A stretch of 64,000 bases of DNA, from assembly GCF_003334785.1 (NCBI RefSeq), contig NZ_QOWV01000007.1; one strand, written 5' to 3'. Below are positions 56,677 to 59,394 of this stretch, in pieces. This stretch comes from Escherichia coli. GTDB lineage: Bacteria; Pseudomonadota; Gammaproteobacteria; Enterobacterales; Enterobacteriaceae. The translations under genes were made by a program, and so were the position numbers. How positions within the stretch are numbered: the first letter of the stretch is position 1; each line of letters opens with the position of its first letter. The notes beneath the pieces are model-generated. The model saw only the letters and a program-made list of their open reading frames with translations, had not been told where the DNA came from and searched no databases.

Positions 56677-59211
56677 TTAATTACTACCAAACATATCCTT
56701 GATCCAACCGGCTACACCGTCGCTGTCTTTCTGCTCTTGCTGAGCAGGTTGCTGTTGCGGCTGTTGCTGCGGCTGAGAAGACTGATCAAACGGATTGCCT
56801 GACGGCTGCTGCTGCATCTCGCTCTGCTGGCACAGCGATTGCGGATCGCTGGTCCAGACCGGCAAGATACGCATGCCACCGCTGCAAACAAAGTTGCCGT
56901 CGTAGTCCACGCCCATATCTGCAATATCTTCTGGCGGAACAAGATTCAGCGGCGTTGGCGTCTGGTTAGCCAGATAACGCTGATAAATCGACATTGCCCC
57001 GCTGGCACCATACAGTTTGGTCGGCTGGTTGTTATCACGGCCGACCCAGGTGATGGTCACCGTGCTGCCGTCAATGCCCGCAAACCAGGTATCTACGTTA
57101 TTGTTGGTAGTCCCTGTTTTCCCTGCCAGATGCAGGTTCGGGTATTTCGCCCCAAGCTGACGACCCGTACCGCGTTGTACCACCTGCTGCATGGTCCATA
57201 GTGTCAGATACGCCGCCTGCGCCGGAACAGCGCGTTCCGCCTGCGGGAAGCTCTGATACAGCACTTTGCCATCTTCCGCGATTACCGAACGCAGCGCAGA
57301 AAGCGGTGCACGGTTACCACCGCTGGCGATGGTCTGGAATGCCTGCGCCACTTCGATTGGCGTTAAGTTCAACGCCCCCAGCAGCATTGCCGGAACCGGA
57401 TGCAACTGATCTTTCGGTACGCCCAGTTTAATCCAGGTCTCCGTAACCGCAGGCAGCCCCAGCGCCATCCCCAGATTTACCGTCGGCACGTTCATCGAAC
57501 GGGTCAACGCATCCACCAGCATCACTCTGCCGCTTTCGCTATAACGACGGTCATCATTCTGCGGTGACCAGACCTGGCCATTCGGCTGACGCAGCGCAAT
57601 TGGCGCATCCGCAATCCACGTATTCAGACGATAGATTTTCGGCTGGCTTAAGGCCGTCAGATAAGTCGCTGGTTTTGCAAGGGAACCAATCGAACGACGC
57701 GCCTGCATCGCACGGTTGTAGCCCGCAAACTGCGGCTCAGAACCTCCGACCATCGCACGAACTTCACCACTAAAGCGGTCGACGACCACAATCGCAGTTT
57801 CAAGATCGCTCAACTTACGCTGTTTCTTCAGTGCCGGAATGCCTTCCACGGCGGCTTTTTCTGCCGCGTCCTGGGCCACCGAGTCAAAGGTAGTGAAGAT
57901 CTTCACGCCGGAGAGATCTTTTACCTTATCGCCCAGTTTTGCCTGCAGCTCCTGACGCACCAGTTGCATAAAGGCTGGCTGAGGAGAGATCACCCCACCG
58001 CGCGGCTGAACCCCCAGCGGACGGGCACTCAACATGTCATAGAGTTCTTGATCAATAATCTGTTGCTGTTGCAGCAGACGCAGCACCAGATTACGTCGCT
58101 CCAGCGCCAGTTTTGGGTTACGCCACGGGTTGTAGATGGACGCCCCTTTCACCATACCGACTAACAGCGCCTGCTGGTCGAGGCTTAGCTCTTCTACCGG
58201 GCGACCAAAGTAATACAAGCTTGCCAGCGGGAAGCCGCGGATTTCGTTGTCGCCGCTCTGACCGAGATACACCTCGTTCATATACAGCTCAAGAATACGG
58301 TCTTTGCTGTAACGCGCGTCCATGATCAGCGCCATGTAAGCTTCGTTCGCTTTACGCCAGTAAGAACGCTCGCTGGAGAGGAACAGGTTTTTCACCAGCT
58401 GTTGCGTCAGCGTACTCGCACCCTGTACCGTGCGTCCGGCGGTCAGGTTTGCCAGCACCGCACGTCCGATTGAGTAGAGACTGATTCCATCATGCTCGTA
58501 AAAATGACGGTCTTCTGTCGCCAGCAAAGTATCCACCAGCAAATCCGGGAAACCACTGCGCGGCACAAACAGACGCTGCTCACCGTTTGGCGAAGAGATC
58601 ATGGTGATCAGACGCGGATCAAGACGGAAGAAACCGAACTGACGGTTGTTCTCCATATTGACGATCGTCGCCAGATGATCGCCATCAAAGGTCAGACGCG
58701 CGCGCACCTGTCCTTCTTTACTGTCCGGGAAATCAAACGGACGGCGAATCATCTCAATGCTGTTGGCCTGCACGGTAAATTCGCCAGGACGGGTCATTTT
58801 CGACACCTGACGATACTGGGTCGCCTCCAGCAGCTTCACCATCTCGTTCTTGCTGATGGTCATGTCTGGCTCAAGATTGACCATTCGGCCATAAACTGCC
58901 GCAGGCAGTTGCCAGACCTTGCCATCAATACGGCTACGAATTTTTTGATCGAGATAAACGCCGTAAATGGCGATCAGCACGGCAAAAACGATAGCCAGTT
59001 TTAGCAGTAGCCATAGCCAGCCGCGTTTGCCACGAGGCTTACGCCCTTTGCCTTTGCCCTTACCTTTGCGCGGCATCGGTTCTTCATCCTCATAGTCATC
59101 ATAATCGTCGTAATCATCGTCATCTTCGTAACGACGACGGCTTACCTTTTGTTTGACCGGACGCGTCGGTTTCCCTTTGCGTCCAATTGGCTCGCGGTCA
59201 TTCCCGGCCAT
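56677..59211 (-). CDS. mrcB: Penicillin-binding protein 1B (bifunctional transglycosylase/transpeptidase)
   Basis: 844 aa from [14 protein letters not shown]; second in-frame Met at [11 protein letters not shown] (short isoform); acidic [15 protein letters not shown] then basic tail before the TM helix. Confidence 0.96.
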
Positions 59212-59308
59212 GCTTTTTCTCCGCAATATTCAGGCGCAAAAGCCCGATTTTCTGTTCTTCTGTTACAAGACAGAAGAAGATATCTCTCAAAATTTGTGCT
59301 CGATCGGT

Positions 59309-59394
59309 CCCCTCTCCCTTGAGGGAGAGGGTTAGGGTGAGGGTGAACGTGCGCGCTGATGCCCTCACCCCGGCCCTCTCCCACAGGGAGAGGG
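59309..59394. repeat. GC-rich composite palindromic intergenic repeat (boxC-like)
   Basis: Three nested inverted repeats: CCCTCTCCCT tg AGGGAGAGGG; GGGTGAGGGTGAACG...GCCCTCACCC; CCCTCTCCC aca GGGAGAGGG. Family assignment is from memory. Confidence 0.6.

Follow-up and report, generated by a model that had tools for sequence, protein, structure and literature searches.

The window, the whole 64,000-nucleotide stretch of Escherichia coli DNA that was analysed, includes the mrcB (ponB) open reading frame, with its ATG start at 59211-59209 and its TAA stop at 56677-56679 on the minus strand, a strand assignment that is absent from the original prediction for this DNA. The translated protein, 844 amino acids from MAGNDREP, is 100% identical to the MG1655 mrcB product WP_000918162.1 (844 amino acids, annotated start), which identifies the gene at the sequence level as E. 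coli K-12 mrcB/ponB. The features of the locus are as follows, all of them on the minus strand.

59219..59222, minus strand: Shine-Dalgarno GGAG of the alpha start, 7 nt before the ATG (sequence; kept in 80/80 loci)
59209..59211, minus strand: alpha start codon ATG, Met1 (sequence and annotation WP_000918162.1)
56677..59211, minus strand: mrcB (ponB) CDS, encoding PBP1b alpha (ORF list and translation; 844 codons plus TAA)
59170..59208, minus strand: conserved N-terminal peptide, residues 2-14, reported FtsA binder (conservation; PMC13423804)
59128..59169, minus strand: basic stretch of the alpha-specific extension, residues 15-28 (charge; residues 1-28 net +8)
59080..59127, minus strand: acidic, Tyr-studded, alpha-specific block, residues 29-44, net -13 (sequence; predicted disordered)
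59087..59091, minus strand: GAGGA (codons Glu41-Asp42), Shine-Dalgarno-like motif for gamma, 10 nt before the ATG (sequence)
59074..59076, minus strand: gamma start codon ATG, Met46, the next in-frame Met (sequence; ortholog counts; literature)
59020..59073, minus strand: polybasic juxtamembrane stub, residues 47-64, net +10, common to alpha and gamma (sequence)
58951..59019, minus strand: transmembrane anchor, residues 65-87 (AF2 helix and Pfam PBP1_TM 1-79)
56680..58950, minus strand: periplasmic UB2H, glycosyltransferase and transpeptidase domains plus a Gln/Pro-rich C-terminal tail, residues 88-844 (Pfam, catalytic motifs, PDB constructs)

PBP1b, a target of beta-lactams, is one of the major peptidoglycan synthases. 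The protein matches the NCBIfam equivalog NF007061 over residues 1-843 with 1734 bits (cut-off 1120) and TIGR02071 with 1247.5 bits (cut-off 717.75), and its Pfam domains are found in the order PF14812 PBP1_TM (1-79), PF14814 UB2H (113-197), PF00912 transglycosylase (209-379) and PF00905 transpeptidase (473-714). The catalytic motifs are present, namely the glycosyltransferase Glu E233 within EDxxFxxHxG, SLAK at 510 (S510), SMN at 572 and KTG at 698. The identity to the characterised K-12 protein, for which structures have been solved (3VMA, 3FWL, 5FGZ), indicates that the product would have both glycosyltransferase and transpeptidase activity. The AF2 model includes a helix at residues 63-98 (block mean pLDDT ~80-94), and the PDB constructs of PBP1b span 53/58-804, with residues 1-52 included in none of them. 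An in-frame TTG located upstream at 59226 in the ORF list was considered as the start and rejected; it overlaps the ribosome-binding site and differs from the annotated start of WP_000918162.1. An Rfam scan of the gene and its flanks returned only sub-threshold miRNA-like matches on an intergenic hairpin, and a promoter and terminator scan gave counts at the level of shuffled sequence.

The original prediction had proposed that the upstream start at MAGNDREP and a second in-frame Met 45 codons downstream give rise to long and short PBP1b isoforms. The second Met is codon 46 (ATG, 59076-59074), and the two starts match the published alpha/gamma pair (Kato 1984; Ribo-RET; PMC13423804). A single mRNA with two in-frame starts would be translated from Met1 into PBP1b-alpha, of 844 amino acids, and from Met46 into PBP1b-gamma, of 799 amino acids, and both forms would share the polybasic stub (residues 47-64), the N-in transmembrane anchor and the periplasmic synthase domains. 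That both starts are used is taken from the literature. They were mapped in Kato 1984 (cited in PMC11005335) and Broome-Smith 1985, and PMC13423804 attributes alpha and gamma to two ponB/mrcB starts in its references 37-39. Ribo-RET peaks have been reported at the internal mrcB start in E. coli (bioRxiv 520783) and in Salmonella (PMC11005335), immunoblot bands of 94.2 and 88.9 kDa are given in PMC13423804, and the published alpha/gamma work includes M46L constructs. Around the alpha start the synonymous sites of codons 2-6 are almost invariant among 80 species.

The cytoplasmic tail consists of three charged blocks, residues 1-28 (+8), 29-44 (-13) and 45-64 (+10), and gamma begins directly after the acidic one. 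The acidic and basic runs noticed earlier do exist, at residues 30-44 and 49-64 (the latter before the helix), but they do not adjoin directly as had been described, P-M-P-R standing between them. Similarly, the segment between the two Met residues contains the acidic block (29-44) but is not acidic throughout, residues 1-28 being basic, and the basic run lies after Met46. Given how often D/E occur elsewhere in the protein (0.096), the chance that a stretch of 16 residues contains 13 or more of them is 2.5e-11 per window and ~2e-8 over the protein; the acidic block is beyond chance. In the AF2 model residues 1-62 are without secondary structure (pLDDT ~48-57, and ~48-51 within the acidic block), and a PDB search with the tail alone produced only chance low-complexity matches (DPF2 and mS33, E at least 0.036). 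The whole alpha extension has a net charge of -5 in E. coli.

Conservation of the acidic block had been suggested as a check of its relevance, with absence from close orthologs as the refuting outcome; that outcome did not occur, and the block was found in every Enterobacteriaceae species examined, with the same order of charge blocks in 79/79, and in 160/163 distinct Enterobacterales tails carrying the N-terminal motif, all counts in this work being made without regard to phylogenetic non-independence. The charge-block order is also observed in Yersinia, Serratia, Dickeya, Pectobacterium, Sodalis, Erwinia, Edwardsiella, Photorhabdus and Xenorhabdus, and the Xenorhabdus and Arsenophonus tails, read separately, have the same layout. 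The tails of Proteus and Providencia lie outside the set compared; Proteus is without the N-terminal motif according to a published statement. Over the 160 tails the median net charges are +8 for the segment 1-28, +7 for the juxtamembrane stub and -6 for the alpha extension, and the block is composed of D (50%), E (26%) and Y (14%), with every other residue at or below 2%. Blocks of 5 to 39 residues and alpha extensions of 37 to 72 residues occur, so that the acidic block cannot be considered a precise ruler. PBP1b-like proteins from outside the order have tails with a median length of 23 amino acids and a median net charge of +7, and such a block occurs in 1 of 124 representatives, which were collected by a 50%-identity search where Enterobacterales form one cluster represented by Hamiltonella. 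Within the order the block is decayed in reduced-genome endosymbionts (Hamiltonella, Serratia symbiotica).

A low-complexity stretch of this kind could be the product of replication slippage, a neutral expansion devoid of function, and the wide range of block lengths would agree with such an origin, as would the in-frame single-unit indels that segregate within E. coli. Two of these variants (213- and 207-nt matches to a 216-nt query) were read; both are in-frame and preserve the composition, and the changes seen are a shortening of DDDD to DDD and the loss of one KG unit. However, the block is kept across at least six families of one order and is lost only in reduced-genome endosymbionts, it is nearly confined to that order, residues other than D, E and Y are each held at or below 2%, and 5057 of 5425 E. 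coli genomes carry the tail-coding stretch with an identity of at least 99%. We therefore regard a purely neutral origin as very improbable. Taken together, the identity of the gene, its two-start isoforms and a tail module with a conserved acidic block are very probably the best explanation of the locus.

The border between the isoforms was also inspected at the nucleotide level. At the internal start position, 67 of the 79 Enterobacteriaceae species have ATG and 7 have GTG, and no start is found in the remaining 5 (Kluyvera, Pseudescherichia and Kosakonia sp. S29). In six further Val-bearing lineages the codon is always GTG, with a Shine-Dalgarno-like motif upstream, while GTG accounts for 56% of the Val codons elsewhere in this gene. 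In 152 of 160 tails the end of the acidic block has a Met or Val at most 6 residues away. The last acidic codons (GAG GAU) would double as the Shine-Dalgarno element for gamma, which would therefore place the isoform boundary exactly at the end of the acidic block. This arrangement raises the question of whether the block acts mainly in the mRNA, its purine-rich, unstructured GAN codons being an embedded ribosome-binding site for gamma and its amino acids a by-product. Consistent with this, GAGGA is found 10 nt before Met46, and we observed that 77 of 79 loci have a Shine-Dalgarno-like 4-mer upstream of the start at the boundary, where synonymous resampling predicts 50.9; the motif shifts among -15, -12 and -9 by clade, yet is retained. 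In the predicted mRNA fold around Met46, which has no special structure (z = 0.23), GAGGA is unpaired. The Shine-Dalgarno argument is nevertheless modest, because the acidic codons alone yield such a motif 64% of the time. The Glu41 codon is GAG in 86% of the species of the 80-species synonymous conservation scan, a scan that gave no signal around Met46 (normalised entropy 0.59, compared to a gene mean of 0.565). Moreover, a ribosome-binding site takes about 2 codons whereas the block covers 11-39 residues, the block is retained in the 5 species without a start codon at the boundary, and it is the Tyr enrichment and the D/E composition of the protein that are constrained while synonymous sites are free to vary. 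A role mainly at the level of the mRNA is thus improbable, although less so than the neutral origin discussed above.

At the opposite end of the alpha-specific extension, R6, P8 and R11 never vary among 40 diverse Enterobacterales tails, in which D5, E7, I9, G10 and K12 reach a conservation of at least 90%. The tail agrees at every position with the 1-60 peptide printed in PMC13423804. According to that 2026 Nature Microbiology paper, alpha is the only form with septal enrichment and activity, and only its N-terminus brings PBP1b to the division site, probably by an interaction of the residues around R6, which is critical, with FtsA; the septal isoform decides the survival of the division site under osmotic stress. 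The evidence described there for the link to FtsA includes bilayer competition, the POLAR assay, imaging and R6E controls; the PBP1b N-terminal peptide was predicted at the same FtsA site as FtsZ and displaced FtsZ from FtsA-coated bilayers, and an AlphaFold-multimer screen with residues 1-60 gave FtsA among the potential partners, contacted via the N-terminal peptide. [quoted passage not shown] In PMC13423804 the targets were R6 and the whole 1-63 peptide, and neither the acidic block nor the basic stretch was dissected.

The 45 alpha-specific residues could then be considered a disordered three-part module, consisting of an N-terminal peptide, a basic stretch and a polyanionic Asp/Glu/Tyr block, in which the peptide D5-R6-E7-P8-I9-G10-R11-K12 would dock on FtsA and bring alpha to the septum, as proposed in PMC13423804. 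The acidic block turns the alpha extension net negative, and we infer, as a reasonable candidate held at somewhat below even odds, that selection maintains it within the targeting module as an expanded, negatively charged spacer. Such a spacer would keep the basic FtsA-binding end off the anionic membrane and the basic stub, and since that end would not be collapsed onto either of them, the peptide could reach FtsA. More tentatively, the Asp/Glu/Tyr block might be an independently required septal-targeting element, operating either by electrostatic stand-off or by Tyr-dependent docking of another divisome partner, one of basic character. If so, one short stretch would set both the capability of alpha and the amount of gamma, a coupling conserved across Enterobacterales. 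The net charge of the acidic block and those of the flanking basic segments gave covariation coefficients of +0.57 and -0.45, with a net relation of -0.10; these values are confounded by phylogeny and were left unused.

The tyrosines themselves would be accounted for if the block were a second specific docking motif that becomes structured on binding a basic partner, such as the FtsN cytoplasmic tail, a basic surface of FtsA, or ZipA. The share of Tyr is 14% in the block as a whole and 59% among the residues other than Asp and Glu, 141 of 160 blocks contain at least 2 Tyr, and successive aromatic residues are most often 4 positions apart (122 cases), then 3 (50), 5 (35) and 7 (32), which fits one face of a helix. 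Spacings of 3 and 4 residues are, however, equally expected from slippage of 9- and 12-nt repeat units, and in-frame unit indels do occur within E. coli; furthermore, neither the register nor the number of Tyr nor the length of the block is conserved, AF2 predicts no helix, and in the available text of PMC13423804 the AlphaFold-multimer partners include FtsA, with the contact made through the N-terminal peptide. A specific second docking motif is for these reasons unlikely, and the negatively charged spacer is the reading that we prefer. A literature search on Tyr phosphorylation of the block found nothing relevant, and that idea was dropped.

The system described here is that of E. coli PBP1b alpha/gamma (Kato 1984; Broome-Smith 1985; Chalut 2001, PMC94866, cited through PMC13423804), with the same gene, sequence, starts and FtsA-dependent recruitment, and no difference from what is published. 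The two-start isoforms and the septal recruitment of alpha are already known; the story of the septal isoform has been published, and therefore nothing new is added at that level. The acidic Tyr-studded block, order-wide and located at the isoform boundary, is the most conserved feature of the alpha-specific tail left undissected in the literature. If it proves functional, the recruitment model would be refined, and it might show a low-complexity coding stretch doubling as an internal ribosome-binding site.

Other systems share parts of this organization. The Gram-positive class A PBP tails that bind GpsB likewise have a disordered N-terminus and a short Arg motif that contacts a divisome adaptor for septal targeting, an analogy drawn in PMC13423804. 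They differ in the partner, which is GpsB instead of the FtsA of PBP1b. To our knowledge, the GpsB-binding tails are without an acidic block and without a two-start isoform switch. FtsZ has a disordered linker with a conserved terminal FtsA-binding peptide. In FtsZ the linker and peptide are C-terminal instead of N-terminal and the sequences are unrelated, the PBP1b linker being a basic-then-acidic polyampholyte. An internal start preceded by a Shine-Dalgarno-like sequence within the coding region, which renders nested proteins, is also found in infB (IF2 alpha/beta) and clpB, grouped with mrcB in the Ribo-RET study (bioRxiv 520783), but the isoform-specific part in mrcB is a short disordered cytoplasmic targeting tail and includes no folded domain. 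A counterpart outside E. coli is the orthologous two-start gene for the long and short MrcB proteoforms of Salmonella Typhimurium (PMC11005335), where the disordered extension was described as running from a basic Lys/Arg stretch into an acidic Glu/Asp sequence. The Salmonella loci L006 and L071 have the same layout, differing from E. coli in a shorter block of 12 residues and an extension of 42 residues.

The mrcB gene (also known as ponB), which encodes PBP1b, is flanked by hrpB on one side and fhuA on the other. Over 2.8 kb the sequence has 100% identity to E. coli K-12 MG1655 and to strains related to it, in which the gene carries the annotation mrcB (WP_000918162.1). The predicted protein matches the NCBIfam PBP1b equivalog with 1734 bits (cut-off 1120), shows the Pfam domains PBP1_TM, UB2H, Transgly, and Transpeptidase in that order, and includes the catalytic motifs E233, S510-x-x-K, S572-x-N, and K698-T-G. 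A Shine-Dalgarno (SD) sequence, GGAG, is located 7 nt 5' of the first ATG, the start of the long isoform, alpha. An in-frame upstream TTG listed by the ORF tool was rejected as a start: it overlaps the alpha ribosome-binding site and differs from the annotated start. The first in-frame Met after Met1 is Met46 (ATG 59076-59074), the start of the short isoform, gamma, which lies N-terminal to the transmembrane helix.

mrcB and the charged blocks of the PBP1b cytoplasmic tail
ATG 59211-59209, TAA 56679-56677, minus strand: mrcB ORF, 844 codons
Residues 1-28: charged block 1, net charge +8
Residues 29-44 (59080-59127): charged block 2, acidic, net charge -13
Residues 45-64: charged block 3, net charge +10

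The original prediction had noticed two in-frame starts and read them as long and short isoforms. The observation is real and the interpretation correct; the ATG at codon 46 is that of the published alpha/gamma pair. [quoted passage not shown] The same paper predicts docking of the PBP1b N-terminal peptide in the FtsZ-binding pocket of FtsA, and reports that R6E removes the alpha effects and that M46L yields alpha only. The divisome role that had been suggested for the tail agrees with this account of the alpha N-terminal peptide, with septal enrichment probably via FtsA binding. Ribo-RET detected the internal site of mrcB, one of three E. coli genes with previously characterized internal starts (bioRxiv 520783), and both MrcB proteoforms were detected in Salmonella, where the extension was described as disordered and as running from a basic Lys/Arg stretch into an acidic Glu/Asp sequence, the same layout as in E. 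coli (PMC11005335). The charged-tail observation and its isoform interpretation are therefore already published; mrcB is the textbook case of two starts in one bacterial gene, and what the long tail does was published in 2025-2026. PMC13423804 makes no mention of acidity, charge, a linker role, or truncation of the tail, and a literature search on an acidic PBP1b cytoplasmic tail gave no match.

The tail had been described as an acidic run followed by a basic one. The dense acidic run and the basic residues before the helix are there, but the charged blocks are three, not two. Given the composition of the remaining protein, the expectation for so dense an acidic window is ~2e-8. In an AF2 model built with a 40-sequence alignment, residues 1-62 lack secondary structure (pLDDT ~48-57) and a helix spans residues 63-98 (block mean pLDDT ~80-94). 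Every solved PBP1b construct in the PDB begins at residue 53-58, and therefore the tail is outside all structures. A similar arrangement, a basic stretch, an acidic D/E/aromatic run, and then KGKGK, was found in human DPF2 (PDB 6lth_R / 9rl4_R, residues 147-189; E = 0.036) and is regarded as a chance low-complexity resemblance.

Conservation of the acidic block, which had been proposed as the check, was found throughout Enterobacterales. Scanning one genome per species of Enterobacteriaceae gave 80 loci, 79 with an intact N-terminus; all 79 have the start MAG(N/D)DREPIGRKG, a basic stretch, and an acidic block 11-19 residues long that contains 9-16 D/E and 1-3 Tyr. Searches that started from the Hamiltonella and Photorhabdus orthologs added many more taxa, among them Yersinia, Serratia, Chania, Dickeya, Pectobacterium, Brenneria, Symbiopectobacterium, Sodalis, Biostraticola, Erwinia, Edwardsiella, Photorhabdus, Xenorhabdus, and Arsenophonus; in all of them the tail parts come in an identical order, and the acidic block can be as long as 39 residues. 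When the Enterobacteriaceae loci were combined with the first of these searches, the block was present in 160 of 163 distinct tails bearing the N-terminal motif, with a composition of 50% D, 26% E, 14% Y, and at most 2% of any other residue; the three exceptions, Hamiltonella and two of Serratia symbiotica type, are reduced-genome endosymbionts. Across a 40-sequence alignment spanning the families, M1, R6, P8, and R11 are invariant and D5, E7, I9, G10, and K12 are at least 90% conserved. Outside the order, only one of 124 PBP1b-like representatives with a definable tail (50%-identity clusters) has such a block; tails there are typically 23 residues long and carry a net charge of +7. This makes the acidic block a feature of Enterobacterales that accompanies the N-terminal motif. 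Public gene calls for some orthologs (database proteins P0360, P0364, P0390, P0404, and P0444) start at an internal gamma-type Met (e.g. MPPRKG..., MSKKPRKKRRW..., MTKKGKN...), which could reflect inconsistent start annotation or real upstream loss in symbionts.

Within E. coli, 5425 of 5426 complete genomes carry the 216-nt tail-coding stretch; its identity is 99% or higher in 5057 and below 99% in ~7%. The two indel variants inspected, both in-frame, affect codons 29-56: TUM14759 (locus L089) is missing one Asp codon (DDDD to DDD), and LR14 (locus L088) has the same loss, lacks one Lys-Gly unit, and carries Asp42 to Glu.

The gamma start always lies directly after the acidic block. The boundary codon in the 79 Enterobacteriaceae loci is ATG in 67, Val encoded by GTG in seven, and no start codon in five, namely L038 and L054 (Kluyvera), L040 and L056 (Pseudescherichia-like), and L062 (Kosakonia sp. 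S29). These five keep the acidic block and the N-terminal motif, read KPRSR, APAPR, or STPRK at residues ~44-50, and are predicted from sequence to make the long isoform only. In E. coli an SD-like GAGGA, from codons Glu41-Asp42, lies 10 nt 5' of the gamma ATG; in other clades the motif is at -12 or -9. An SD-like 4-mer occurs in 77 of 79 loci with ATG or GTG at the boundary vs 50.9 expected by synonymous-codon resampling with the gene's own usage, which ignores relatedness of the loci; none of 20,000 simulations reached 77, and the background rate from acidic codons alone is 64%. All 12 unambiguous boundary Vals are encoded by GTG, compared with a 56% share of GTG among Val codons in the rest of mrcB; Biostraticola has two Vals there, the second being GTG. 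These observations support maintenance of the internal start across Enterobacterales; the support is limited to moderate by synonymous sites near Met46 that show no unusual conservation and by an RNA fold prediction without special structure there.

The positive-inside rule leads one to expect basic residues on the cytoplasmic flank of an N-in anchor. A scheme in which one mRNA with two starts would yield gamma, retaining only such a polybasic stub, and alpha, adding a disordered module of 45 residues with a conserved tip that would engage FtsA and concentrate the synthase at the septum, is well supported. As for the acidic block, it is possible, and our tentative reading, that it acts as a polyanionic spacer and insulator: it brings the alpha extension to a net charge of -5 in E. 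coli (median -6 in 160 tails), which would prevent an otherwise strongly basic peptide from being trapped at the anionic inner leaflet or at the stub. Its 3' codons may also serve as the gamma ribosome-binding site. Retention of the block where the internal start is lost, its strictly constrained, Tyr-enriched composition, the in-frame nature of both inspected variants, and the confinement of its loss to endosymbionts point to selection on the protein. A role at the mRNA level only seems improbable, and a neutral slippage product more improbable still. A specific Tyr-dependent docking motif is unlikely: the aromatic residues are spaced 4/3/7 (in 160 blocks, successive Tyr/Phe are 4 apart in 122 cases, 3 in 50, 5 in 35, and 7 in 32), but slippage of repeat units of 9 or 12 nt would account for this as well as a helical period would, and the AF2 model has no helix there. 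The new points are descriptive: the module is conserved across the order, the boundary lies at the block end, and the gamma SD is embedded in the block; none of these would surprise a specialist.

Synonymous sites in mrcB codons 2-6 (GCG GGG AAT GAC CGC; 59194-59208) are near-invariant in 80 Enterobacteriaceae species (normalized entropy 0-0.21 vs a gene mean of 0.565), which suggests that the region of alpha translation initiation is constrained at the nucleotide level. At the other end, the C-terminal tail (residues ~800-840, ~56690-56810) is low-complexity and Gln/Pro-rich, and falls outside the crystallized constructs, all of which stop at residue 804; its weak sub-threshold Pfam match to FtsA_C (E = 0.011) is most likely compositional.

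The hrpB-mrcB intergenic region includes a GC-rich imperfect palindrome of ~85 nt (59310-59394), with 81% complementary arms at 59317-59343 and 59362-59388. An Rfam scan of it gave only miRNA-hairpin matches, all sub-threshold. The palindrome is an unannotated, low-copy dispersed repeat found in 4217 of 5426 E. coli genomes at a median of two and up to five places per genome, a near-full-length copy anywhere in the genome being present in only 3481, and is probably a member of an already known class of intergenic repeats in E. coli.
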